DNA of 58,531 nt, counting the filler, from Circinaria calcarea (Eukaryota), in the NCBI GenBank assembly GCA_051942165.1. It is 6 parts of 6 records of this genome, joined end to end, with 100 filler letters (N's around TTAATTAATTAA, not from the genome) between each part and the next. Parts side by side here need not be neighbours in the genome. Positions count along the whole stretch, not along the records: positions 19,590 to 29,262 come from JAVECS010000898.1; 5 more parts are not named here. One strand, 5' to 3'. Positions within the stretch are counted from its first letter, which is position 1; the number at the start of each line of letters is the position of its first letter. Position numbers and translations under genes: made by a program. Below the pieces are notes generated by a model. It was not told the DNA's origin, did no database searches, and worked only from the letters and a program-made list of their open reading frames with translations. Of this stretch, positions 5,040 through 32,463 are shown one piece after another.

Positions 5040-5580
5040 TGATGGGCTTTGATGATGGCGATAACATGAAAGGAACCAAGGACGAGGAATGCACCACCTC
5101 GGGTAAGCGTCTCATCGGGTAAAGCATTTAGTTTACCCAAGTGTAAAAGCGGCAAGACGGTAATGCGGTCCGGATGCTGCAAAAAGGGATAGTAGAGGAA
5201 GGAAGCAAACTGAGGGCGTATTGAGGGGCTTTGGACCGATTCCCGATCAGGCTGGTGTTTCCATTGTACTTATCATATTTTGGGGGTGCTCGGCCGGGGA
5301 TCCCCGTTTTACTCCGCCTAGAGGTCATTTCCTGCGATTGGTGGATCCTGGGCAAATTGTCAGAGCTGCGTTGTACCCTTGGCGATTACCGGGACGTGAG
5401 ACGCCCAACCACCGGCTTTGGAACGTTGCATACCCGTCAGACTATGTGCGGGCTCTAAATTTTAAGACGGGGTAAAAATTAGACGGCAAGATTAAGGTGG
5501 CATATTATTCCCAGAGTGACCTTGCGATCAAGAAACTGTTGGTGGAGGATGCTCGGCTTTGGCTCGTGTATCTGATACCA
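5040..5580 (+). pseudogene. Decayed coding sequence of unidentified family (RIP-like stops, frameshift)
   Basis: Protein-like frame MGFDDGDNMKGTKDEEC..RLIG*SI*FTQV*KRQDGNAVRMLQKG, then ..HRLWNVAYPSDYVRALNFKTG*KLDGKIKVAYYSQSDLAIKKLLVEDARLWL. Most stops are TAA/TAG, consistent with CAA/CAG C>T changes. Confidence 0.3.
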
Positions 5581-8516
5581 GGCAACAAACCCGACTTCAC
5601 CGTTGGATCGGGGATCGCTTGTTAGGGTTCCCCCTTGTTTTGCAGAAATCGCGCTTTTAGTAGAACATAGAGTACAACAGCAAGGTCCGTAGCAGAAAAT
5701 TGGACTGAATATGGGACACGTCTTCCATGCATCTCTTCAAACCCCATCAATCAAGTTGTGCAGATTTATGGTACATGCAGCGTACAGCGAATTGCCGAGG
5801 CGCACTGTAACCCAGCGTCCTCCCGTGAGGCAAGAGCGGTTTTTGGCAATGCGAAAGCTACTTCCAAAAAATAGAAAAAAACCAGCGACAGCAACAAAAA
5901 ATACTCATGGCAATTATACTCTATTTCAATTCCCATTCGCTTACTTGAAGATTCCATTACGGAGAGTTCGAGGAACCATAACCAAATTTTCGAACTGAAA
6001 TGCCAAAAATGTAGAAGGAGAAGAGTGCCCATCAACATGATAGATAGATTAGAGCCTGAGCCGAGCTCCCCGATGGTCGCATCTTTTTTGACCAAGAAGC
6101 TTCACATTTTGGAATGGACGCATCCACCGTCGACTGTTCTTGGATCATCGTCGGCAGCGAATGGAACCAAACCTACGGAGGTAGCAATGTGCGAAGTCTA
6201 CCAAGCGACAGCGACGGGCAGTAAGCGTGGATGAGAGATGTCCGATAGTGGTGTGCACAATGCTCCTATAACCTGGAACTAGTTCGAATTTTGTAGGGTA
6301 GCGATCAACTTCGCTGTCGTCTAGGTCCAAGTGATCTGCTCTCTCAACGTACTATGGCAAGAAGAGAGGAACCGATCTACAATAAATCATCGAGGACTGT
6401 GCGAGGGAATTCTCCGAAACTGTGTACTTTCTAAAGGCTTCATATCAGTTCCCATAAGGTCTACATTAGCGGGTAAGGGAACTTGCAGACCAGCGAAGCG
6501 CTTACGCTGCCTTTTCTCACGGATTGCCAGAGCCCATGATTGCCATTGAGAGGACCACTGGGACCTACTAGGTGCATTTATCTCAGGACTAGCACCATGC
6601 CAATCAAGGTAGATAGTATGTTAAAAAAAATTGCCAAAATGTCCACGCGGGATGCGTCAAGTTGAATGGATAAGATTAAAAGTTCACGGGCGTATTTTGA
6701 CTGCTCCCTTAAGCTGGCGATCGATGTCTATCGTGGGAACGTGAAAGCTGGCCGGAGGCACATGTTTCCTGTAACCCTATGAGTGGTTACCGAGGGAAGA
6801 TCCTTGGTTCTTATCTTGGGTTTCAAACCTTGTCAAGGCAATATGTACTGGTGGCCGGACCTTTTTTGCTTCCGTATGTCCTTGACTCGGTGACTGGTGC
6901 GAGTGTCTTTTACTTGCCCCAATAATGACCCCGTGTAACCACGACGTCAAGGTATGCACGGATTCAGGGATTCCGTATCGCTAAGTCAGCGCCTATCAAG
7001 CGGTATGTCGGTTGCTGCCGATTGCGTGATTTCGGCATCCCATACGAAGAGGATTCTCTTCCCGCATGTCGTATGTATGCGCTTGCCAAGATACCTAACG
7101 TACTCAGGATATCTCACGGGAACAGGGGTCAGAAATTGCGCAGACATCAATGAATAGCCTCGCAAGGAATCCTGCTAACATACGGGTAGACCTTTCGTCT
7201 CTCAGAATATTCCGGCTACTGGAATTCCTAGCTTGTCGGAAAGTAAGACAAAGGCTCGGTCGGCTTTGTCAATCATCGATTCCAGCCGCGTACGGGACAT
7301 TATAGGCCATAGGAAATGCCCATCCGAATTGAAGGGGTCAGAAAATCGAACAAAAATGTGATCGTCATATATCGAATTGATCGAGGACATTTACTCTGCT
7401 TGCTACCTACGGTGGTACCACAACGTTTAGGCATAATCAACCGATGGCTCGATCTGTTTACCTCGGGCTGGTTGCGTTTCCAACCACACTAGTAAAGTCA
7501 ACTTTCCACCGCACCGACCATCTCTGCGGAGATTGTAGGTTATTTTTTCTCCGGCTGATGAAGCTTGGTCTCGTCGGCCACCAAGACCCGTGAGACGGTT
7601 AGCAGCGCGGATGGCTGCTGTCGAACATGGAACCGACACCAAGTCCAAGCCGATATATCAGTTGCTAGATGTCCATGGGATGCTGCAATGCGGTGGCTGG
7701 TTTCAGGAAAAAGGTACCCAATCGCTATTGAAGCCGACAGCATCTACCTTGACTGCAGCTGCTCCCGGCTTTAGTATATACTAGCGAACCTTGTCATTGG
7801 TGACCCTTTTCTCCCATTAGCCAGTGCTTTGCATACGGATAACGAGTGTCGATGGTCGAGGATGAGTAAGTCCAGGGGGAATATCGTCGCTCTGCCTGTT
7901 TGATGGGTGACGGCAACAGCGAGGATTCGACATATGTGCACCCTTGATGCGTTAGACGGGTCCGGTACTCGTTGTAACTATTAGGCCCATTGTCAACCTT
8001 GTGAGCTAATATGCATAGCTGGAGTCACATTACCGGGCTATGCAGTGGTACCTTAAGAAATGTCTGGCAAATAAAAAGGTTTACCAGTTCTGCAAGGTAC
8101 CCAAACGCGCGCCCTTCTTACCAAATACTGGTTAAAAAGCGTTGTACACATGTCATGGGAATCCCATGTTTTCGGGCATTTTTTATACAGGACGCTTGAG
8201 AGACTGTACGTATTGCTTAACCATAGAATTGGCAAGCTGCGCTAGAAAGGGACTAATCTAGTTTTTACCAAACGCATTTGAGTTCTATGTGATTCCACCA
8301 TGATCCAAGTTTACCCCAACCGGATTTAAATGCAATGATAGAATCAAAACCGAGAGCTACAAATAGTAGATACATCCACTGACCGAAGATAGACCAGACC
8401 GAAATGAGAACCAAATTAGGAACGAACATCACTTCCATAGACGCATAAACGTACACAGTATGGAAAGAACAAAGAGTTGCGAAAGGGCTGCACTGCGATC
8501 TCGTTGACGTTGAGAA

Positions 8517-9801: not shown

Positions 9802-10290
9802 GATCACAAGTTCAGATTTTCACAGAGCACCAAGTGTCACCAGTTGTCATCCGCTCAGACCTGATGATACTCCTCCCCCGACCACTTTAGGGGTATCTGA
9901 TATGTACGGCCCGAGAATGACGCCGAAGCAAGGAACTTCCACGCCGGACGCCGCTTATCGATTGCGTTCACTTTGCCTTCGTCAATGTGTCTGTGTCCTT
10001 CCTCGGACACCTCTGTCTTCTGTTTTCAGCCACCCACTTGCTTCTAGCATCGTCTCTCATGACCTGCGCATGACTCTTGGCTCGTCTTGAGGAATATTAT
10101 TTCTCCTGCTGCAACTTTTCTTCACTTATACTTGCCCAAGACCCCCACTGTACCTAAATTCAGAACGTGTCAGTCATTCCTCAAGCTCCAAGAGATCGAA
10201 AGCGCTGGGCGTTGACTTACGGAAGGACCGCCCAGACTACCTGAGACGTCTTCTTTTCCTTTGTCAACTGTTACTTTGGAGTCGGGCACC

Positions 10291-11083
10291 ATGGCCGAAC
10301 GAATCCTCATGAACGAATTCAAGGTGCTGTCGAAGGAGAAGTGGGTTAATGTGGAGGTGTGTATGGCCGACGCCCACGTTGATAAATGGTGTACTAAACT
10401 CGTGTGTAGCTGAATCAAGAAAATGTCTTTAACTGGAATATCGCTCTCATTGTTATCAATCCAGACTCTCTGTACTATGGCGGGTACTTCAAGGCCAAGA
10501 TGACCTTTCCGGAAAACTACCCCTACTCACCTCCAGGTAATCGGAAAGTTCTCGTTGGGAAAGTTCTTGCACTAACACATCAGTAGATTTCAAATTCATT
10601 CGACCTCTCTACCATCCGAACATCTATAAGGATGGCAAGCTATGCATCTCCATTTTACACCCCCCTGGCGATGACGAGTTGTCTGGAGAGACTGCAGCAG
10701 AACGTTGGTCACCGGCTCAGCGAGTAGAATCGGTTCTGCTATCCATCATATCCTTGCTTGACGATGCCGAGTGTTCGTCACCCGCAAACGTCGACGCTGG
10801 GGTCATGCTTCGCAAGGAACCCAAGGAGTTCAAAGCCCTCGTCACGAAAGACGTGGAACACTCTCGAAAAGATATCCCGGAAGACTTTGTCATGCCTACC
10901 CATGATTCAACAGCGCGGCCCATTGAGAAACAAGACGATCGAGACTTCTGGTATGACAGTGAACCAGGAGATTTTGGAGGCAGCGACACTGAGGAAGAGA
11001 TGGAACTGGATGAGAATGAATCAGGTCCTGATCAAGAGAGTGAAAACGAAGACGAAGACGAAGATGAAATGGATCAAGATTAA
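10291..11083 (+). CDS. CDC34: Ubiquitin-conjugating enzyme E2, Cdc34/Ubc3 type; introns 10357-10409 and 10537-10586
   Basis: MAERILMNEFKVLSKEKWVNVE|LNQENVFNW..YYGGYFKAKMTFPENYPYSPP|DFKFIRPLYHPNIYKDGKLCISILHPPGDDELSGETAAERWSP. Catalytic Cys, acidic loop insertion and long acidic C-terminal tail are present. Confidence 0.88.
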
Positions 11084-19489: not shown

Positions 19490-19589
19490 NNNNNNNNNNN
19501 NNNNNNNNNNNNNNNNNNNNNNNNNNNNNNNNNTTAATTAATTAANNNNNNNNNNNNNNNNNNNNNNNNNNNNNNNNNNNNNNNNNNNN
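19490..19589. other. Artificial contig linker
   Basis: N44-TTAATTAATTAA-N44. Confidence 0.98.
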
Positions 19590-19881
19590 CCCTCTTATTT
19601 ATCCACCCCCTATCCACTTAACCTAACCCAACTCATCCCATCCCATCCCAACCTAAACCCCTACCTATCCCCAAACTCCCCAATAATCCGTAATACTTTT
19701 CTTACCCGAAAACCTCCCTCCCCCAATTCATTCTCATTTTCATTTTCATTCTCATGCCACTGCACTGCACATTTTTTACTTTTTCTCCGGCCCCGGAGAG
19801 AGCTGGGGAGAAGAAAAAAAAAAGGAGGAAAAGGAACAATGACAAATGACGAAAAATGAATGATTTGATTACTATAAGAAA

Positions 19882-19925: not shown

Positions 19926-20959
19926 GGAGATGAAGGTGCGTGTCGCTACCGTAGACCAAAACAACAACAATTCCGGGCTCATACCATAGATCTTTTTTAG
20001 TGAAGACGAGACGAGACCGATAGACCAAAATGAAATTTCACCTATCAATATCCCACGTACGGTAAAGTAATCAGGGCGCCTATTTACCGGTACCTAGATT
20101 GAACTCGCCCTCGAATCAGCTACTGGAGCTTTCCAAGTCAAGGGAGGGGAGACCTTGGGCTTTTCTCTCTCTCTCTCCCTCTCTCTCTATATATATAGAA
20201 TCCTTGAGTTTTAAGTATATGGTATCGCCGCATTACTCTCACGCTAAGGCTCATTTCGGCCATACGCTTCCTTGGTGCTCCCCCTGCTCCCTCACTGCTC
20301 CCCGTGCTCCCCCAGTGCTCCCCTGCAACGCCTTCTTGCTACCTCGCTGCTCCCTCGTGCTCTCATATTGCTCGCCCTTCGCTCTGGAGCCTGAGCAACG
20401 TTAGACAATGCGCAGCCCAAATTGGATGCTGATTACAGAAAAGCTAATTCCAGCCATACTGTCAAGTGGGTGTCCAGAAAATTCAGACACCCGAAGTGAT
20501 CACCTTTAGGCTCATGTGCCCCAGAAGCCGCGCTGAAAAGCACTTAAAGTTTAAGGTTCATATCACTAGGGATGTCTGGACACGCTAGAAAGGCGGTTCA
20601 AATTTTGATATTTAAATAAATCACCTATCTTTCATCATTAAGCGTCTGCATCGTTGCCACAGCAGGCTGTGAGCTTCATAGTCACCGGGTTGTTTGATCT
20701 TACAGGTCTAGCTCATTTAACTTGCCTGCCTATATTTTACCCTACTTTTAGGCGCCAATGTAAATTCGAGGACCTTGTTAGGCAACAGCCGTTGTGGGAT
20801 TCACGTTGCGCCTCCTTGCTCCCTTGCTGCGCCCCCTGGTCTCTCAATGCTCTCTCAATGCTCTCTCTAAAGCGGCGCTGCTCCCTTGACCGAACAGAAA
20901 CAGTAATCCGAGATCCTAAGTTCGGGGGTGCCGACGTAGGAGGTAGAGGGAATGGGAGG

Positions 20960-21335
20960 ACGGTGGATGTCCCAGGGGGAGCTGTGTTTCCAAAGTATGG
21001 ATCAGTCAAGACTTAGATCTAGGTGAAAATGGTAGACAAGGATTATTGGACTGACCCACTTGCGTAAAAGCCATAGGACTGATAATTCTGTTTGCTGGGA
21101 TCATCCGGTGGCCCCGCATACTGACCTTGCAGCGCTATGGAAGTGGCCGCCATTTTCGCGACAGGGTCAGGCACCTCATGTTCTAGTCCAGACGAATTAT
21201 AGACTTTGCTGATATTGACTGGGCACTTGTAGAATGCGGGTGCTTCTGAAATGCCTATTGGAAATCCCGAAGGGTTTTTGTACGCCCACATGTACACGCA
21301 GCAAGGGCCGCAGCTCAGTATTGCTGATAAGTGTG
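20960..21335 (-). pseudogene. Internal fragment of a conserved-looking fungal hypothetical gene, abutting the kinase stop
   Basis: SCGPCCVYMWAYKNP..PAFYKCPVNISKVYNSSGLEHEVPDPVAKMAATSIALQGQY..YGFYASG, then a GTCAGT..CTGA..CACAG intron and SPWDIH. No convincing start or end. Confidence 0.4.
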
Positions 21336-21338
21336 GTG

Positions 21339-24318
21339 TCATGGGTTCTGGAGGCAGAAAATCCTAAGCTCACGCTTCTTCCGCATCGCGATGTATTGCC
21401 CAGAATTCGAAAGCCAGTATTCGTCAAACTTTCCAGCAGCCAGAGAGCAGACGACATTGCCATTTTTAACATCCACACATACGACTTCGTTATCGATCGA
21501 CTTAACCTTTCCCCGCCCAAACTTTCCTAGAATAGCTCGAGCAGGGTTTTGCAGGGTTGCTGCGAATTTGAGGTTGGCGGAAAATATTGTTTTTTCGATT
21601 TCGAGGTCGAAGGATTCGGAAGGGAAAAGGCCGATCGAGGCCAGTTGCGTTCGAGAGTGCAAGTCGTGTAAAATCAGAGTTCTTTTGGATTTCTCCCACA
21701 ATGCCGCGACCCACTTATCATCCCATGATGTAAACGCTAGGCGCGGATATCTGACCACGATATCCCATGGCTCCATCCAAGCTCGTCGCCCTTTGTCGAA
21801 CTTCTCGTCACAACTGGTCGTGGCCCACTGTATGATGTTCTGATCGGTGTTATTCGTATAATGATTGACCAAACGGATACGTATGTAATTCTTTCCCTTG
21901 TGAAGGGTTGACCTCTGACTACTAACCGCTAGCTGACGGTTGTCTGGGGAAAAGCCAGCCAGACAGTCAGAATTCCCCACGCTGGCTTGGGTAGGTGGTC
22001 CCCGGACCTTCCCCTGTGCCGTGAGAGACACGATGAATATTAGCTCCTCGAACGAGTCTGATAAGGTAGGTCGACGTCTTGTTACACCAAATGCGACATG
22101 TTTTGAATCGGTAGACACCGCAGCCACGCCAGTAAGGATCGGCTTCATCATATTCTCCGAACGACTAGCAAAGCGATAACCATCTTGTTCTGTTAGTGGC
22201 GGGAAAAGGATATCAAACCGACTTCCACCATTTTGTACGTGGTAGGAAGTTAGATGGGATCTCCAACAGACGAGCAGGTTCTCCCCACTGGGCGCAAAGG
22301 CGAATTTGGGGAAATTAAAGTGCCATTCCGTTTCGGCTGACTCTGGGATCGTTTGAACTTTGTTGCCGGAAGGTAATGCATAAATGGTGATTCTTCGATT
22401 GTCTTCGACGGCGAGATACTTCTCATTGCTTGAAATTATTGCATTGCGTACGTTGGTTATTGGTACTGTCAAGATGGAGTCAGTCCAACCCAGTTTGTTC
22501 ACTTGCTTTACATTGATAGGCTCATCAGCAGCATGATGCAGGCTGTTCACCTCGGCTGGTGTGGAAGCTTCATCACACTGTATCTCGCTTATGCGAAGTT
22601 CCAGCAATGTGGTCAGTTGCTTCAATTGAGAGGTTAACTTGGCTGCAAATTCGTTCAATGGATTAGGATCATCAAGAAAGTTGATGGTTCGATTCATTGT
22701 ATCATGAAGCGATTCTACTTGAGAACGATCGGCAAAGAACCTTGATTGCTTTATGCGAGGATCAAGATTCGTCGTTGTGTCGTCTCTGGTTATTAGAAGA
22801 TCAGCCAGGTGACGGAACTTCTCCCATTCCATGATTGTCTCGGTGTCATCAACCCGCCACTTGATAGACCTGAAAGCTGCATTCAAAGTCAAGTAGCAAG
22901 CTTCAAAAGAGATAGCGCTGAAGCCTAGGGTGATTTGACTAGCCTTTAGTCGTTCTTCCAGTTGGACAACTAACATCTGACGGATCAACGCCACAGATTT
23001 TGAGATGAGGCCGTCATGAGCATTGGCCATCTCATTCAACCTTCTATCCACGGCTGGATTGAGAGATCTTCTGTGGAAGAAGGTTCGTGTCGTCAGAAAT
23101 CCCTGCTTTACAGAGCGCGACTCTCGAAATTGTGCAAGAGAATCGCCTCCTTCAGCCATGAAAATGAGTATTTCAAGCAAGATACAGCCTAATGACCATA
23201 CATCACTCGCTCTGCTGACGATCCCTTTCGAGAAATCCAGCTCAGGGTCCTGGCACTCGGGCGCAAGATAGTGACCCTGGCCCATCTTGAATGGAGTCCG
23301 AGAGTCTTCTGCAGTCTTGAGCTTCGAAAGCCCAAAGTCTGAGAGAATGAACCGCCCTTTGGATACAAGGATGTTCTTTGGTTTCAGGTCGTGGTGGTAT
23401 CCAATCATTTCTCTGCCAAGCACATCGGATTTATACTTGTGCAGTGTTTGCAGTCCGGAAGCCAGTCCAGACATTGCTCCGTAGAACTGTGCATTTCGGG
23501 AGAAGTCTGTGGGCCTGCCGTTTTGAGTAAGTAGGTGTTCCAAGTCGCCTCCTTCGGCGAGAGGCAATAAGAAGTTTGGGATCCCATTGTATGTGTAGGA
23601 TGTTAGGAGTGGAAGAATGCTCGGATGCTCCAGGTGATATAAGTAGGACATAATTTGGTGCTCATTCGATCCAGCTTCAGCCCAGAGGTCGCCATCTCCA
23701 AACCCCTTTCGCAGCTCCTTCCGCACCAAGCGAGCTGGCTAAAACCCATTAGTGTTGTTAATTTCAAATCGACATATACAATACCTGATTCCTGTCTTTG
23801 TCCTTGAATTTGTGGTGACCAGCCGCGATCACAATTTCATAAACATCTCCGAACCCTCCACCTCCAATCCTTCGCGATTCGACGAAAGGAAGCGTCATCT
23901 CCGCCGGTATACTACGATGATGGAGACGGTGAGTGAAGACAGGAGCCATGAAAACCCACTGATACTCGCAGAACTCGCTAGCAATGCTTGGTGACAAAAT
24001 CTTCTCAAGCTCCGACTTTGAGAATGGCAGTGAAGAGTCCAGCTTCTGGATGTCGGACGGCAGATAATGTTCCAAGAGCGCGGCAAGATGCTTCTCTTCC
24101 CGTATCATGATCAGTGTTGCAAAAGCCTTTCGACCGCCTCTCTCGATAGCATGTGTCATCCCTTGCACCGCATAAGGCTCGACATCGCAGTGGTCTGTGA
24201 GTGACTTTCGGATGATCTCTGAAGAGAGCACAGTTGCTAGCGAGCCTTCGGGGACGAACCATCGCCCATCGATGTTGCGGCAGCGGGCGTCCCTGATCTC
24301 GTGACGTATCACATCCAT
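21339..24318 (-). CDS. Ser/Thr protein kinase (~977 aa): N-terminal extension, kinase domain, helical linker, C-terminal WD40/beta-propeller-like region; intron 23739-23784
   Basis: GGGGFGDVY (exon 1), LVRKEL (beta3 Lys), NEHQIM (alphaC Glu), HHDLKPKNILV, SDFGLS, YLAPE, SDVWSLGC. The C-terminal part has repeated propeller-like blades (AFAPSGENL, AVSTDSKHV, GFSPDNRQLAV, IFSANLKF, LSNSGQYIA). The intron GTATTG..ACTAAT..TAG keeps the frame. Confidence 0.92.
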
Positions 24319-24573
24319 TTAATCGGATTTCTACGTGTATACGTTTGTGGATATAGGAGTCATCGACAAGGCTGAGAGCAAATAAGGATGCACCGATCTT
24401 GGCAATGGCGAGACCAATCACATCGCCGACACCCCGCAACAGTCGGTAATTCTGCAGAGGATATAATACAAGGTATCAATCGACAAGGTAATATCTGTTC
24501 GTGCTTCCGCCCGACTGTCTCACCAACTCTGAGCATCTTATCTGTCCCCCAGTTGAACTTCCGAGCCCCAACG
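24319..24573. promoter_or_regulatory. Probable bidirectional promoter (255 bp) between kinase and microprotein genes
   Basis: Head-to-head ATGs at 24318 (-) and 24574 (+); TATA-like GATATAATA near 24460. Confidence 0.55.
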
Positions 24574-24847
24574 ATGAATCAAATACTCGAGCAAAGATAC
24601 GTCGACAAGCAAAAGTTTTTTTCCTTGTTGTCAAGGTTGTTCGCAAATGGCACCTTCTCTGTGGAGGCAAGTTTTTCCTTATGGAGTTATATTACCGCTG
24701 TATTAACGCTCAGCAGGATACTGGAGAACATTTTATCATGACCCTCCCAAGAGGCCTCACCCAGGCAAGTTCTACCAATTACCATAGGTGCCATACTAGG
24801 TTCTTAAGGTAGCCTAGGACGAAATCCAGTCGGTGAGATCGGAGTAG
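24574..24847 (+). CDS. 56-aa microprotein, 3 exons (24574-24666, 24717-24764, 24818-24847), two GC-AG introns
   Basis: Spliced product MNQILEQRYVDKQKFFSLLSRLFANGTFSVE|DTGEHFIMTLPRGLTQ|DEIQSVRSE*. Both donors are AG|GCAAGT and both introns are phase 0 (50 and 53 nt). Intron 1 has a TTAAC branch and CAG acceptor. Confidence 0.75.
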
Positions 24848-24865
24848 GATCAGGGGTCGAATATA

Positions 24866-26434
24866 CAGTACTAGGCCAGAAAAAGTGGCACGGCGGGAAA
24901 ACCGGCCACCCCTCACCAAAATTAGGCTAATTTCTCTGCGCTTTTCTACATAACTTAATGAGATAATTGAAAGCTAAGAAACTTTTGTTTACGTGGTACA
25001 TGGTGTAGCAGCCCGTCGGCTGGTTTTTTTGGTGGTTTTGAGTGGCCTAGTACTTGGTACAGCACCCATCGGCTTGAATTATGGCTTCGCACCTCCTCGG
25101 CATACTCCTCACCAAACTCCTCATTAAATCCCTACCTATCAAAACCCATGCTCACTTCAAAGTAACGTATAACTCATCCAGAAGATGTTGATCCATCCCC
25201 TGTCATTCACGGAGTCCTGGGTTAAGTCAAAGGCCATGTTTTTCAGCTCATACCAGAGGTTTTTAAATCGGGTGAGATCTGGGCTATAGGTTGGCCATTG
25301 CATGACGTTTATACCGTGATCACTCAGCCAATCCAGTACCCATTGCGCACGGTGGATCGGAGCGTTATCCTGCATGAAAATGGGACCCGGCTGGCCAATG
25401 AAATCCTCTTAATCGACAAGCACACCAATATACGAGGCCGCTGTATATCCACCTCTTCTTCCTTTAGTATCACGGCTCATCCTGAGTAGGTCGGAGCGTC
25501 TCCCTCCTCGAAAAGCTGCCCAAATCATAACGCTAGGTGCCTTTCCTTTATGAAATGGTTCAATGATATCTCGGTCCTATTTCTGTTATGGGGTACAAAA
25601 AACCCATTGCCGCTTCCGGCCGGTTCCTAGCTCCACAGAACACTTATCACTCCACACCACTTTACGCCACTGATTGTAAGTCCAGTGGCGATAATTATAT
25701 GCACAGGCAAGCTCTTTAAACGATATAGCTGGTGTAAGAAGCGGGCGCTTTTTAGCTATCCATTGGGTGATCCCTTGCTCTTTTAGAAATCGACGTATTG
25801 TACGAGGAGAAACGTCGATTTGGAGGTTATAGAGGAGTTGAGAGTAAGTGATTTGAGGGTCAAACCGGACAGTTCGAAGGATTACTCGTTTGGCACGTTC
25901 GCGAAGCTGTTATCGACTTTCTGAGCCTTGTTGTCGATGATTAGAGCCTATTTCTTTCCATCGGTTTATGACGTTTTGAATGGAGCTTTTCGGAAATTTT
26001 TCGGATCTTGAGATTCGACCAAGGCTACACCCGTTTTCCCACACCCCTATAGTTCGTCCCTTGCTTAATAGAGTACAATGCGTTTGCTTTACATACCGTG
26101 AGCTCCGTGAAGTACGAGGAGTCATGGTTGTGGAGTGGAAGTGGTTGGGGAAAGTGGTATTGGTTTGGTCTAAATCATGCGTGGGGAAAAAAAACGGTCG
26201 CTATATTCTATTCAGAACCTTGGCCGGAAAATCGTTTTTCCGGTAGCTTGGATGCCTACTCCAAAAATTAAACATCTTTTAAATACTTTATTATTATACT
26301 TTTATAATAGTTCAAAACTTAAGAATATTTCTGCAATAAAATATATATATTTTCTAGGTGGAGTATCCAAACGCTGATTTTTTCCAGCCAAGAATTTTGA
26401 ATATAGGGGTATTAGTTTTTTTGGCCGGGCACTG
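24866..26434 (-). mobile_element. Tc1/mariner (Tc1-like DD34E) DNA transposon, degenerate, flanked by TA
   Basis: TA|CAGTACTAGGCCAGAAAAAG at the left end versus reverse complement TA|CAGTGCCCGGCCAAAAAAAC at the right end (15/19 identity). Contains a transposase pseudogene. Confidence 0.8.
25046..26125 (-). pseudogene. Tc1-like transposase pseudogene
   Basis: HTH region, AKKRPLLT, WRKVVWSDKCSV, SVMIWAAF, FMQDNAPIHRA, WPTYSPDLTRFKNLW, ADGCCTKY*. Multiple in-frame stops and the catalytic Glu is lost. Confidence 0.9.
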
Positions 26435-26582: not shown

Positions 26583-28417
26583 TTAGAGGCGTCCGCGGCA
26601 ATGTCGCTTTTCCAATAGAATAGACAACCCCAGCGTTAATGCCGTACATCCAAGCGTGACAATAGCATATATCCAAAATTGTGGACTAATGACCAATCGA
26701 TTAGGTGAAGAAACAGCGCCTCGTGGCTGCGAATTGATCAGGTTGGAGCTAAAAATAGTCTATCGCAATTCGTGTCAGTATATCTCACTGCTCAAAATGA
26801 CACGAGAGCCCATATTTACCGCAATGAGTGTCGCAGGAAGGTACACGACTGTGATTCGCGTCAGCGTCTTCAAATTGAGTGTGTGCTCACGATTTTGTCG
26901 TGCCAGTTGCAACATATCGCCGCTGTCTGTACGTGTTGCTGCCGCATTCTGCCCCAATGTGAGCATGCTTGCCTCGAGGGCCTTGCTACTGCGCCTGATT
27001 TCATCTGTGAGGTAGAAATCGCAGATCTGCTTCAAGTAAGGCACGACTTAGCCTGTCTTGAGATTTAAGCATTTATCTTTCCGGCTATGCTTACAAGATC
27101 TGCCGTCCCATTTGAGGACTTTATGAGCGCGCCTATAACACTCTTATAATAGTCGAAATGATCAATGAGTTGCCTCATCTCGAGATGAATTGTGGGGTCC
27201 TCAGTGCAAACATTGGCCTTTTCAATTTCTGCGCAATGGGTGTCGCAGCTGTTGATGGTCGCTGAGATGCTTCCGAGTATAATTACTGAACGACGCAATT
27301 TGTGACGAATCTTTTGAAGTTGCTGACCATCAGAGAAAGAGACCCTGTAATCTCCTGGCGGTGCTTTGCCAACACGGGAGAAGCAGGCTTTTTCGTCCTG
27401 AAGGAACGTTATTCGCAAGGGCACTGAGCCTTGATGATCAAATGACCAACCAATGATTGCAAGGCCAAGCGTAGCTGACCAATATAAGCCTTCCAATGCA
27501 CTTGAGCAGAGCCTAGGAAGACGAGATGCGGCGCCATAAGACGGAATGCCACGTCGCTTGACTGCAGACAGATATTTTTGAACTGGTGCAGTACGGCATC
27601 GTTGGGCTGAATCAGAATCCACGTTGAGCAGCCAGTCCTGATGTCCATCTTCTGATAGACGGCCGTTTGCCGGATAGACCATTGGGAGCCTTCGGCTCGG
27701 CCGTTGTTGATCACATATCGAAAGGTGTAGGCCATCTCTTTGATTGGGCCCAAACAGTCAGCATGCATGCTTTTGATCATCAGGTTCGTGAAGCTTTGAT
27801 AATCATACCGTATCCCAATAGCTTATCAGTGCAATTAGGGTCCCAGGTACAAACTCGATGACAGCCCTCCCAGACCTCGTCGTCGTCATTTTGACGGAAG
27901 CCAAAGGCTTGTACGCAGTCCAGAAAAGATAAGAATACACGATTGATATTGAGGATGTTGAACATCAGATCTCTTGTGATGTTGAGATTATCCCAGGTGT
28001 ATTTTTGCCTGATTATGCTGGGTGTCTTCTCAAAACATAGGTATTGTCATGTCTAGATGATGAGAGCTCACTAGATCATGTTTTTGGCCTCACTTCGTAA
28101 AGACTGCGGCAAGTTGTCAGTCACATTTGAAGGGTACGACAATGCTATAGCCTTACGTACTTGGACAGTCGGAATGAGGGTTTTCGCGGAGTGTATACTC
28201 GTGATCATATCGAAGACTGCCCGCTATCAACATATGGTAGGCTGATTAAACTTAGAAGGAGCCTTCCTTTGCCATCCTTGGGCCATGACATCACTTCCAC
28301 GCTTCCTTGGTCCTGTTTGAAGACCCTTGCAGAGTCTTGCAGAATCCGCTGACGGTAAATTTCGGGGACCGCGACGCATGTTCGGCTCTGCGTCTGATTC
28401 ACAAAATATTCATCCAT
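26583..28417 (-). CDS. Fungal CorA-like protein: large soluble domain + two C-terminal TM helices, ~7 short introns
   Basis: IIRQKYTWDNLNITRDLMFNILNINRVFLSFLDCVQAFG, EMAYTFRYVINNGR..WSIRQTAVYQK..STWILIQP, DEKACFSRVG..DYRVSFSDGQQLQKIRHKL, LKTLTRITVVYLPATLIA|TIFSSNL (intron 26760-26819), FWIYAIVTLGCTALTLGLSILL. The first intron donor is not cleanly resolved. Confidence 0.82.
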
Positions 28418-29262: not shown

Positions 29263-29362
29263 NNNNNNNNNNNNNNNNNNNNNNNNNNNNNNNNNNNNNN
29301 NNNNNNTTAATTAATTAANNNNNNNNNNNNNNNNNNNNNNNNNNNNNNNNNNNNNNNNNNNN
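29263..29362. other. Artificial contig linker
   Basis: N44-TTAATTAATTAA-N44. Confidence 0.98.
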
Positions 29363-29380
29363 GCCCGGCCAGTCGCATCC

Positions 29381-30576
29381 TTAAGAGGACGCGCCAAGGC
29401 AGGGCTGCAAGCCAGAAGACGTCGCAGCAGACTGATGCGGAAAGTCGAGGGCGGAGGTGGCGGAGGAGAGGAGGTCGAAGTGATCTTGGCTGTGCTGATC
29501 GTACCCGTCGAAGGTGATGAAGGTGTCGTCGGTGTCGTTGCCGCCGAGGTGAGAGGATTGACCGGCGTCGAGATCAACCATTGAATCAAATGAAAAAGCA
29601 TTGGCGTCATCCTCGTGGTTGTCGGTAGCGGCGAGCCCGTCTTCAAAGAAATGAAGATTTGGTTGAGCGGATGCAGGAGAGTCGAAGAGACGGCCGAAAG
29701 AAGAGCCAGAGAGAGGTGAAGTTGCGTAAGCGTGAGCAGAGCGCGCATCGGTGGAGATAGAACTTCGTCGTGAGGTAATGTCGCTAGAGTTAACAACGGG
29801 CGCCAGGCTGCTCCGGACTGACACTGCAGGCCACACAACATCGCAGCAGGATGTTGTGTCATATCCGGAGAGGTGGCAGACCCGTTGTATTCTCTACGAG
29901 TAGGCGACGGCGATCGTGACGATGAAGAAGATGCGGAGGAGAATGATGAGCGAGGATCGAGGGTGTTCTGAGGTGAAGGGAGTGAGAAAGGATAATCCTC
30001 CAGTTCTTGTTTGATAGCCTGATCGTGCTGTAGGAGATCGGCGGTGAGGGTAGGTGACGGTGGGGAAGATGAACTGGGAACTTTCGAAAGTTGCTGGGAG
30101 GTAGCACCGCTCTTCAACAGTGCGGCTGCCATCTTTGCAACTTGTTGGGACAGCCTATACTTGTCATGTTCAACTTGCATGAGACGCTGCTTGAGCATGT
30201 AGTTCTGACGTTCGATGGCGTATTTCTCGCCTTCGAGCTTCTCGACTTCTTGCCGCTTGCGCTCCCGTGATGACTGAGCAGCTTGACGGTTTCGGAGGAC
30301 ACGCTCAATGCGACGCTGTTCCTTTTCGTCTTCCGTCTTCGCCCGTTTGCGAGGGGGGAGGTTCGTCTTGGGTGTTGGCAGCTCTTGACCCCACGACTTT
30401 CGCTTCTTCGTCGGCTTCCTCTCGCTCTCATCGTGCTGATTGACGGCCGTGAATGATTCCGGAGAGGTCGGCGTCAGCAGAGATGTCTCGGCCAGAGAGA
30501 TGGTGGCTGGAGGCCCGCCATAGTATTCGGGGGTGGTGGCATAAGCCCGGAGAGCTTCGAAGCCGCTGTTGTTCAT
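29381..30576 (-). CDS. hacA: UPR bZIP transcription factor HacA/Hac1 (induced form ~391 aa after removing 20 nt at 29827-29846; the uninduced frame runs off the contig)
   Basis: KKRKSWGQELPTPKTNLPPRKRAKTEDEKEQRRIERVLRNRQAAQSSRERKRQEVEKLE; DMTQHPAAMLCGLQCQ at the unconventional intron. The shifted frame AVSVRSS.. ends at 29381. Confidence 0.95.
29810..29870 (-). promoter_or_regulatory. Ire1-cleaved unconventional 20-nt intron with flanking stem-loop
   Basis: Minus strand ACACAACATC-CTG|CTGC-GATGTTGTGT (10-bp stem, 7-nt loop), a second site CTG|CAGT, and outer pairing CTCCGGA/TCCGGAG. Confidence 0.9.
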
Positions 30577-32463
30577 CTTTGCTCTGGTAGAATGGGGGAC
30601 TTGAGAGTTGCCGAAATGACCAGGCTGGATATGTGCAGCACGATGTCTTCGTTTCGCGGTGAAACCAACGGGGAACTTTGGATTATAATGAACAAAGTTG
30701 CTGACTGCTAGGCTCCAAGGGGCGTCCCCACAAGGTCTCTTCGACTCAGGAAGATGATGCCAGCTGTCCTCCCAAAATATAATCGGGTAACGAAGGGGGA
30801 TTAAGCGAGAAGGGGACTAGCGCCGGGGCCGGGAATGCCTAAAGGTAAAGTGACGAATGAAGGGGGTGTACGGAAACGAAGAACAAGAAAGGAGGGTCAG
30901 GTGATGTCAGGCTGTCGGTCGTAAGGGCAAAAGGAAAGAGGGAGATCAGAGGGATCTTTATATTTTCTACGTGTCCTCTCCGACACACCCCCTTCTCCTT
31001 CTCATCTTTTAGACTCGGCTTACCCCGTGTGCCTCCGTCTTACTTCTTTTTACTGCCTTCGAATGCGGCAAGACTTATGTTTCTAAATCCGAGCCGGGCC
31101 GGCTGTGGCTCCAGCTCAGCCTTTCGGAGCGTCAGGGAGTTTCACCAACATCTGAGAAAGCAAAAGAACACAAACGATGAGCCAACCCTCTCATATGCGG
31201 CACGCATGACTTCTGAAGCGCAGTTGGACGGGGTTTCAACATCACGGCACTGCAGCAACCCTCGACGATTGGACTCTCCACTCACTCCTTGCTCTCCCTT
31301 CCCCCATCCCACATTATTGCCCAGCCTCGCGTCTCGAAGAGGCATTGCCCCATTACTCATCCAGCCATTGGCGCCGATTCGGAGGGGCAGTCTTGGCTGA
31401 TGGAAATATGGTGATGCGAAAGGCATGTTGCTGATGTGAGGAGTAGTCGGCGCATTCCTCCAACCATTCCGGCGCGACAGGCATATTGATCATGTCGCAC
31501 ACCGCTTTTGTTTTGGCTTGCCGGCGAGCTTGGATGATTTCATCCGAGAGAGACAAGGCAGGCCATTGTGTAGAGGTACCGGGACGGCTAGAGTCGTAGC
31601 ACCCATATCCGCTCCGATGACCACACCTACGTGGGCATCTCATACAGTCCTCAGTTACAATGGAGCAATCGATGTCTGTCGTTGAAACTACTCGACCCTT
31701 ATGCGCCAACATTCTCCCGATTATCCGGAGAATCCGCGGGGGATGCGACGATGCAGCCCTTGCTGATACAGGAACCATCGCGTGCTCACCTGGGGTACTG
31801 AATCAGGGAGCAATACCGTCCGCATATGGCACACGGTGTAAAACCTTAACATGCACGACATCGTATCTCAACTCATCGGGGCCAACTATCCACCCAAGAG
31901 GTCCGCCGCCCAAGGACATCCCGCTGAACGAGTGACCAAAACCAACATTATTACAGGTATGCTGCGTTTGTCTATTGTATCTACTCCGAAGATGAGGTGA
32001 GGGGTCAGAAGTTTTGCCCCTCCTTTCGAGAGATGAATCGTCGAGGCAGCTCCCACAGGATCACAAGGTAATTATGCTTCAAACACCGAAACAAGTGTGT
32101 TAGGGTTGGGTGAAGAACGATGGCGTTTCAGATATAAGCATATCGCACTCCCGCAACGCGAAAAGCACGTTGCCGATCAGAGTTAAAGCCGCCAGACAAG
32201 CACTTGGTTCAATCAGATCAGCTTCCACCCTTTCCAACAAGGTAGACCCTCCCCCGAATCATAGGAACCCCTGAGTACTCCGCCACCCCCAAGCATCTTT
32301 GATTTGTTGCATTAGTCGTACCCAACCTTTACTGATTAGAAGCCTTGTTGGCAGCTGGGCGCTACAGTGCATTATGTGCTCTAATGTTGGCGGTCCTCTA
32401 ATTCTCCGTGGATAGCCCTGATTCTAGCTTTCTTGTCCATTGATTTCGAGATATGTTGGCTCG

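Follow-up and report, generated by a model that had tools for sequence, protein, structure and literature searches.

Among described systems, the one whose logic comes closest to the locus analysed here is, to our minds, Podospora het-B, where, according to the accessible part of its description, a gene for a small PII-like protein (Bp) is tightly clustered, in variable orientation, with a HET-domain partner (Bh, a HET-lectin) that induces cell death (PMC10890737). What both loci share is a small alpha/beta gene next to a larger signalling gene whose orientation varies. In contrast to the trimeric PII-like Bp of 115-132 residues, however, the microprotein considered here has 56 residues, its partners are kinases and a CorA-like gene, and no HET domain was found. 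By analogy, a kinase linked to a presumed pore effector also recalls RIPK3/MLKL necroptosis and the fungal HeLo-like (HELL) kinase fusions, as treated in the accessible text of a review from 2025 on cell death in fungi (PMC12881547), except that our presumed effector is CorA-like, no HeLo/4HB domain was found and those systems come without a microprotein. We class the locus with neither het-B nor these kinase systems. The sections of this review available to us contain no passage on CorA or microproteins, and a review of hidden fungal genes, as far as its accessible part goes, draws its microproteins mostly from yeasts (PMC11413187). In one lichen fungus, the gene families named side by side as having expanded include CorA, kinase-like, HET, ankyrin, WD40 and TPR (PMC3897900, in excerpt). 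Our literature search, mostly of non-subscription journals and without supplements, found no description of the microprotein family or of a kinase plus CorA-like cassette, and no paper on GC-AG introns in lichens.

With regard to introns, the accessible portions of three sources state that GC-AG introns make up 1.009% of fungal introns (PMC7072748, Table 1), that this fraction differs widely between species (PMC3033335) and that in one study the gene predictor Augustus did not recognise them (PMC5677156). Like other fungal U2-type GC-AG introns, the two described below combine a GC donor that is otherwise near-consensus with a YAG acceptor and a length of about 50 nt. They are unlike them in that a single gene has GC-AG ends at each of its two introns, at sites that appear to be ancestral and are mostly GT in homologues.

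Splicing of a 56-residue microprotein gene

The window, i.e. the whole 58,531-nt stretch of Circinaria calcarea DNA that we analysed, is fungal and gene-dense with about 48% GC and N-filled gaps; TTAATTAATTAA, found at 19500-19590 and in other gaps, is a linker-like spacer between N runs and an assembly artefact rather than biology. Here the initial annotation had placed a hidden gene for a 56-aa protein with two phase-0 GC-AG introns of about 50 nt, both opening with the same donor, AG/GCAAGT (the slash marks the splice site). Inspection of the sequence confirms its donor coordinates exactly as well as intron lengths and phase (Table 1), and conceptual splicing (24666^24717, 24764^24818) returns the identical 56-aa product.

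Table 1. Coordinates of the microprotein gene and its neighbours in the window.
Feature	Position	Strand	Description
Kinase gene	21339..24318	-	two open exons; N-terminal domain, kinase, helical linker, probable WD40-like propeller
Spacer	24319..24573	.	255 nt separating the start codons of the divergent kinase and microprotein genes
Exon 1	24574..24666	+	residues 1-31: strand 1, conserved R-Y-x-D motif, amphipathic helix, strand 2
Intron 1	24667..24716	+	GC-AG, 50 nt, phase 0; branch-like TTAAC ~24703; site conserved, donor elsewhere mostly GT
Exon 2	24717..24764	+	residues 32-47: strand 3, P-R-x-L-T motif; 15/16 residues as in P0004
Intron 2	24765..24817	+	GC-AG, 53 nt, phase 0; weak branch site; GT donor in L002 and L004
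Exon 3	24818..24847	+	residues 48-56, short helix, TAG stop; 8/9 residues as in P0004
Tc1/mariner transposase remnant	25157..26200	-	three frames; DDE_3, HTH_Tnp_Tc3_2, weak HTH_SB
CorA-like membrane protein gene	26583..28417	-	multi-exon, 5' exons modelled in part; tblastn to L002 and L004

Two public sequencing runs cover part of the stretch, and neither is recorded as RNA: X1, which we guess to be RNA, and X2, which is DNA-like. From X1 comes a single 179-nt contig (depth 4.7, 95-99% alike, 7 differing letters) that spans 24573-24854 and skips exactly 50 and 53 nt at the two introns. Each joint can slide by 3 letters, and since only the +2 register among the 4 possible ones gives known intron ends (GC..AG), the joints are placed at 24666^24717 and 24764^24818, the two junctions that the initial annotation had proposed for checking. 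Hence, this one contig of a near-identical relative, the RNA status of which is a guess, lacks exactly both introns, and its joints fit GC-AG ends. In the X2 contig (90-95% alike) the gene is unspliced and no intron indel occurs among the 40 of 102 rows listed; this contig extends into the Tc1/mariner remnant and carries a 61-to-25 nt replacement at 25029-25091. Codon 15 of the window copy (24616-24618) is TTT (Phe), while X1 and X2 both have CTG there and the homologues described below have Leu (42 of 45) or Phe (3).

Protein-level evidence points the same way. One natural, already spliced 56-aa protein (P0004) shares 48 of its 56 residues with the predicted product, 25 of them among the 31 residues of exon 1 (for exons 2 and 3 see Table 1), and all three window exons are open and near-identical to it. 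When 449 three-exon models of the window were enumerated, the one proposed in the initial annotation scored highest against P0004 and also against a second full-length protein (P0023). As for other splice forms, the proximal AG of a CAGCAG acceptor would yield 57 aa with an extra Gln; this isoform is sound on paper but went unseen in the single spliced contig, which uses the distal AG, though contigs drop rare variants. An acceptor at 24812, computed to give 54 aa ending in PRTKSSR, is not the one used either, as intron 2 ends at 24817 in X1. Retention of intron 1 or of intron 2 would produce 55 aa or 62 aa, respectively. With splicing in X1, the 24817 acceptor and intron positions that are conserved among homologues, none of the outcomes that had been listed against the gene was found, and we have hardly any doubt that the microprotein gene is real.

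Microprotein family, predicted fold and intron donors

Searching 1.84 billion representative sequences with a two-sequence exon-1 profile gave 35 matches at E<=0.001, of which 33 were kept and two (P0011, P0024) dropped as long repeat proteins. A 12-sequence profile matched 30 of 743 candidates, 12 of them new, bringing the family to 45 sequences, not all of which are independent; a word-index search with the intron-retained frame had one candidate and one match. Besides P0004, full-length members are P0023, P0019 and P0063. Conservation is highest at Y9 (all 45 sequences), F23 (44), L19 (43), L15 and L18 (42 each), D11 (41) and R8 (40). No Pfam family was found on 6 of the 7 members scanned, a Rad52 row on P0023 (E 0.093) being taken as noise, PDB sequences gave no match at E<=10, and among 22 look-ups no name beyond 'hypothetical protein' turned up. 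In the ESM Atlas, P0004 retrieved three clusters from Ascomycota, all without a name and with 65-114 members each, whose scores of 0.75-0.83 lie below 0.9 and make them leads only; rows obtained with exon 1 alone (0.80-0.81) looked unrelated and were set aside. The microprotein belongs to a conserved, unnamed family of ascomycete type.

An AlphaFold2 model from an 18-sequence alignment led by P0004 (pLDDT 92.3, pTM 0.71) has a beta-alpha-beta-beta-alpha order, with strands at 2-6, 29-32 and 36-40 and helices at 12-22 and 47-52. This reproduces the helix-strand-strand-helix anatomy read from the sequence before and adds a first strand that had been missed. Foldseek found no match at E<=0.001 in PDB and viral libraries, though a weak or absent match is no proof of a new fold. 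The best row of a wide structural search was the N-domain of a secretin, a ring-building motif (8co1, Z 5.8, rmsd 2.1 over 53 residues), ahead of the copper chaperone ScAtx1 (1sb6, Z 4.9), GolB (4y2i, Z 4.6), ACT-type domains and PII-like CutA (Z 3.9-4.0). All matches stay below Z 6, with identities of at most 15% in the top rows. What the model shares with secretin N-domains, HMA chaperones and ACT domains is a small alpha/beta sandwich, a predicted fold that is common, carries no functional assignment and scores in the generic range. In contrast to the ferredoxin-like HMA chaperones, the model (three strands, two helices) lacks the last ferredoxin strand as well as their CxxC motif. This HMA/Atx1 metallochaperone signature is absent from the 6 of 6 members checked, which have 0-1 Cys each, and from the exon-1 parts of the 45 sequences. 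With 56 aa, the microprotein is also smaller than PII-like proteins such as het-B Bp, whose trimeric fold with a T-loop takes about 100 residues or more, and no Pfam PII-type match was seen on 7 members.

The family allows donors to be read from proteins in which an intron was translated. At the end of exon 1, 6 of the 45 proteins run on into exon 2 and 39 read through the intron. Among the latter, 36 continue at once with Val and 2 with Val after an extra Glu (a GTN codon, i.e. an implied GT donor), whereas 1 continues with Ala-Ser. This one (P0002, 74% exon-1 identity) reads like the window and probably has a GC donor; P0005 (77%) and P0006 (74%) imply GT. For intron 2, read-throughs occur in P0009, P0013, P0017 and P0038, all four with Val. 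In two homologous loci read as DNA (L002, L004; see below) each intron starts with GT and occupies the same phase-0 site; in the L004 homologue (7917-8290) the donor of intron 1 is shifted downstream by one codon compared with other family members, adding a Glu. P0062 and P0063 agree at 32 of 32 exon-1 residues, one reading through with Val and the other spliced, so they represent read-through and spliced forms of one gene. In P0013, P0038, P0050, P0051 and P0060 exon 1 is directly joined to exon 2 while intron 2 is read through, and P0022 shows the reverse; these forms may reflect intron loss or partly spliced transcripts.

Both intron positions are conserved across the family but the GC donors are not, and the notion of GC-AG introns as a family trait finds no support: 38 of 39 intron-1 read-throughs imply GT, and both DNA loci have it at both introns. 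We see the GC donors as lineage-level substitutions at ancestral GT sites. They would be tolerated since each donor otherwise stays close to the U1 consensus (7 and 8 of 9 places match), and probably have no effect on fitness or only a mild one on expression. Once both are GC, identical donors are to be expected since both fit this consensus. By base composition, a second AG/GCAAGT within 150 nt has p ~0.002, and with 3 copies on both strands of the window against 1.8 expected, the 8-mer is not in general excess. That two of two introns are GC-AG is unusual, as had been claimed, given the fungal rate of 1.009% and the ~1e-4 per two-intron gene that follows from it by arithmetic if both are independent; such an event is rare, yet within reach of a very large scan, and the pair looks like a low-frequency local feature.

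Both introns have YAG acceptors, and intron 1 has the branch site TTAAC. Intron 2, when scanned, showed no CTRAY or TTRAY site and only CTTAA, which fits the rarer CTHAH branch pattern in the accessible part of PMC5677156. This intron is also TA- and CTAG-rich (TpA/ApT 2.67, over only 53 nt; no RIP signal in the Tc1 remnant), and its inverted ends CTAGG...CCTAG could pair over the acceptor. We rejected the idea that it is a copy of intron 1, whose alignment score was reached by 83 of 500 shuffles.

Whether the family is systematically under-annotated, as the initial annotation supposed, has a mixed answer. No Pfam family covers it and 'hypothetical protein' is its sole name, but the shortened database forms are no measure of eukaryotic predictors, since most of them look like the output of gene callers that ignore introns. 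The window copy itself is likely to be missed by annotation if predictors, like Augustus, are blind to GC-AG introns. GC-AG as the general cause of poor annotation is a claim we would drop, nearly all homologues implying or showing GT donors.

Kinase and CorA-like neighbours

Upstream and divergent from the microprotein lies a gene for a protein kinase (Pkinase E 3.7e-22) that retains catalytic motifs and has a GT-AG intron at 23784-23739 (-). Its structure model is poor (pLDDT 47, kinase lobe unfolded), with a C-terminal half made up of beta-hairpins throughout; at this low confidence, top Foldseek rows that include G-beta, WDR5 and a WD40 domain would fit a WD40-like propeller, which we regard as probable. 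The spacer between the two start codons is a likely shared promoter. When the N-terminal kinase exon was used in a word-index search, 1 of 807 candidates matched (P0003, a hypothetical protein from a Polycauliona sp. MAG). The thought that the microprotein might be a detached kinase domain found no support, as it has no similarity to the kinase profile (probability 0.1), and no second microprotein-profile match was found in six frames of the window, L001, L002, L004 and L005. Just downstream of the kinase, at ~20640-21290 (-), there is a candidate small multi-exon gene that contains the window's third AG/GCAAGT (20725); two of its frames gave no Pfam match and it has no counterpart in L001-L005. 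Further along the window, a bZIP gene (29311-30816, -) with an overlapping second frame (29381-29893, -) presumably is an ordinary HAC1-like gene, the overlap being as expected for HAC1's unconventional intron.

On the other side, convergent with the microprotein gene and downstream of the Tc1/mariner remnant, we find a third partner that the initial annotation had not noticed. This multi-exon gene encodes C-terminal hydrophobic segments, and its first intron (28296-28215, -) has no clear consensus donor, the candidates including a GC donor off consensus and a short intron that starts with GT. Following the first membrane helix, the next exon opens with TIFSSN or TIFSSD (TIFSSN in the window). 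We call the gene CorA-like on the weak basis of one PF01544 match, seen on the unspliced frame of the L004 copy at E 3.5e-4 and 20.4 bits, below the cut-off of 27; the window's own gene pieces gave no Pfam CorA match. GMN is the motif that confers Mg selectivity on CorA. It is absent from six frames of all 3 loci (window, L002, L004). To the CorA/ZntB/Alr1/Mrs2 channels (PF01544) the protein is tied by this weak match of the L004 copy and by hydrophobic C-terminal segments, but it differs from them in lacking GMN and in being clustered with a kinase and a microprotein.

A search for homologues beside related kinases had been proposed, and such neighbours were present in both loci that could be compared. 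An early metagenome scan with the two-sequence exon-1 alignment yielded 588 pattern matches and 0 confirmed ones; with the microprotein pattern alone, 5 of 14 matches were confirmed (L001-L005) and reduced to two distinct loci, L002 and L004, while L001 and L003 end before the partner genes. L002 and L004 were both fetched by one exon-1 pattern and may come from related lichen-type fungi. Each carries homologues of the window's kinase (64% and 50% in L002, 34% and 37% in L004) and of its membrane gene (28-45%), and of 382 window frames of at least 60 aa, only those over the kinase, microprotein and CorA-like genes match the loci at E<=1e-4. In L002 the order is microprotein, CorA-like gene, kinase, all in one direction, the kinase having a weak PD40 match. 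L004 has a kinase with weak DUF7580 and a kinase-TPR gene (TPR_12 E 1.1e-17) divergent from the microprotein, followed by the CorA-like gene. L002 also contains a fragmented frame with a weak TPR_12 match upstream of the microprotein (5169-6275), and a pair of inverted repeats (110 nt, 88%) between CorA-like gene and kinase (10080-10926). The Tc1/mariner remnant has no match in L001-L005 and lies outside the conserved cassette.

Since gene orientations differ among the three loci, we speak of linkage rather than plain synteny; it survives where exon 1 is only 55-61% identical, orientations have been reshuffled and the flanking genes are unrelated. In the window and in both distinct loci the microprotein is kept beside a GMN-less CorA-like gene and one or two protein kinases, and we consider it likely that it is a working part of this cassette.

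Possible functions of the cassette

Which part that might be can be proposed with less assurance. The best reading, to which we would give somewhat less than an even chance, sees the microprotein as a putative binding subunit of a kinase-controlled membrane-pore cassette for non-self defence or cell death in fungi. Kinase, CorA-like gene and microprotein would form one signalling cassette, in which the variable repeat domain of the kinase (propeller in the window and L002, TPR in L004) may act as sensor and the CorA-like protein, without its Mg-selectivity motif, may provide the membrane-pore output. The microprotein, presumably too small for catalysis, could use its conserved surface (E6, R8, Y9, D11, P42, L45, T46) to restrain the kinase or the cytosolic domain of the channel, or to couple the two, and its head-to-head position would keep it co-expressed with the kinase. 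Searches for HET, NACHT/NB-ARC, HeLo and gasdermin gave no Pfam match on 38 frames and proteins (16 and 22 in two scans), the frames being unspliced pieces. The window copy could be decaying, since it has Phe at residue 15 and a Tc1 remnant stands between it and the CorA-like gene. A bolder version of this defence reading, which we hold to be unlikely though worth stating, is that the microprotein serves as putative safety catch or adaptor of a new immune cassette, widespread in ascomycetes, where a membrane pore derived from CorA but lacking GMN would be gated by kinases with repeat sensors in a necroptosis-like manner, with CorA in place of MLKL/HeLo. Such a cassette would have escaped notice on account of its smallest gene, which spreads 56 codons over three exons.

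Several other explanations have to be weighed against a binding subunit in defence. The CorA-like protein might be a kinase-controlled transporter of Zn, Co, Ni or Mg that serves ion homeostasis or stress signalling, with the microprotein as accessory subunit or as a cysteine-free relative of the HMA metallochaperones; we think this rather improbable. The CorA/ZntB/Alr1/Mrs2 channels are not known to have an accessory subunit of such a kind. GMN is missing, CxxC is missing with 0-1 Cys in 6 of 6 members, the Z values are generic, and sensor-like TPR or propeller fusions of a kinase are atypical of housekeeping transport. These points outweigh for us the weak PF01544 match of the L004 copy, the presence of ScAtx1 and GolB among the top fold rows and the Endocarpon CorA expansion, which its authors read as Mg supply to the alga (PMC3897900, accessible part). 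More remote seems a selfish toxin-antidote or meiotic-drive cassette, mobile among accessory regions, with the CorA-like protein or the kinase as poison and the microprotein as antidote. Flanking genes and orientations that differ in the three loci, nearby repeats (a Tc1 remnant and an inverted repeat) and a tiny, presumably co-expressed partner that would suit antitoxin logic are all in keeping with it, whereas the strong sequence conservation across divergent copies is not. Because antidote-style control is also expected in a defence system, the evidence does not separate these two.

Equally doubtful is a role for the GC donors themselves, selected as a splicing throttle whose retention products, lacking the C-terminal part, would keep the dose of microprotein low or conditional. 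The low chance of two GC donors in one gene, the computed retention products and the probable GC donor of P0002 could be cited for it; yet P0005 and P0006, which are equally close or closer, imply GT, L002 and L004 have GT at both introns, and events of 1e-4 are bound to turn up when a great many windows are scanned. We also find it distinctly unlikely that the microprotein is an independent small gene whose neighbourhood goes back to shared ancestry or to a hot spot in an accessory region, or that the window copy is a decaying allele. Few loci are at hand, and the weak branch site of intron 2, F15 and the adjoining transposon remnant do fit decay, but the linkage is retained at an exon-1 identity of 55-61% despite changed orientations and different surroundings, and all three exons remain open and near-identical to P0004. 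So, with the grading given above, we keep to a binding subunit of a defence or cell-death cassette as our working interpretation.

The double GC-AG pair, for its part, counsels caution in annotation and offers a small natural experiment in the turnover of GT and GC donors; otherwise it is ordinary low-frequency biology. What matters more is that an unnamed, conserved microprotein family now has transcript- and protein-level support and appears to be tied to a recurring cassette of kinase and CorA-like genes. If the defence reading were true, cell death in fungi would gain a further class of effector, new to the field, with a small, well-folded protein as its easiest experimental handle, and the 'CorA expansions' of lichens that have been read as magnesium supply could be reassessed.
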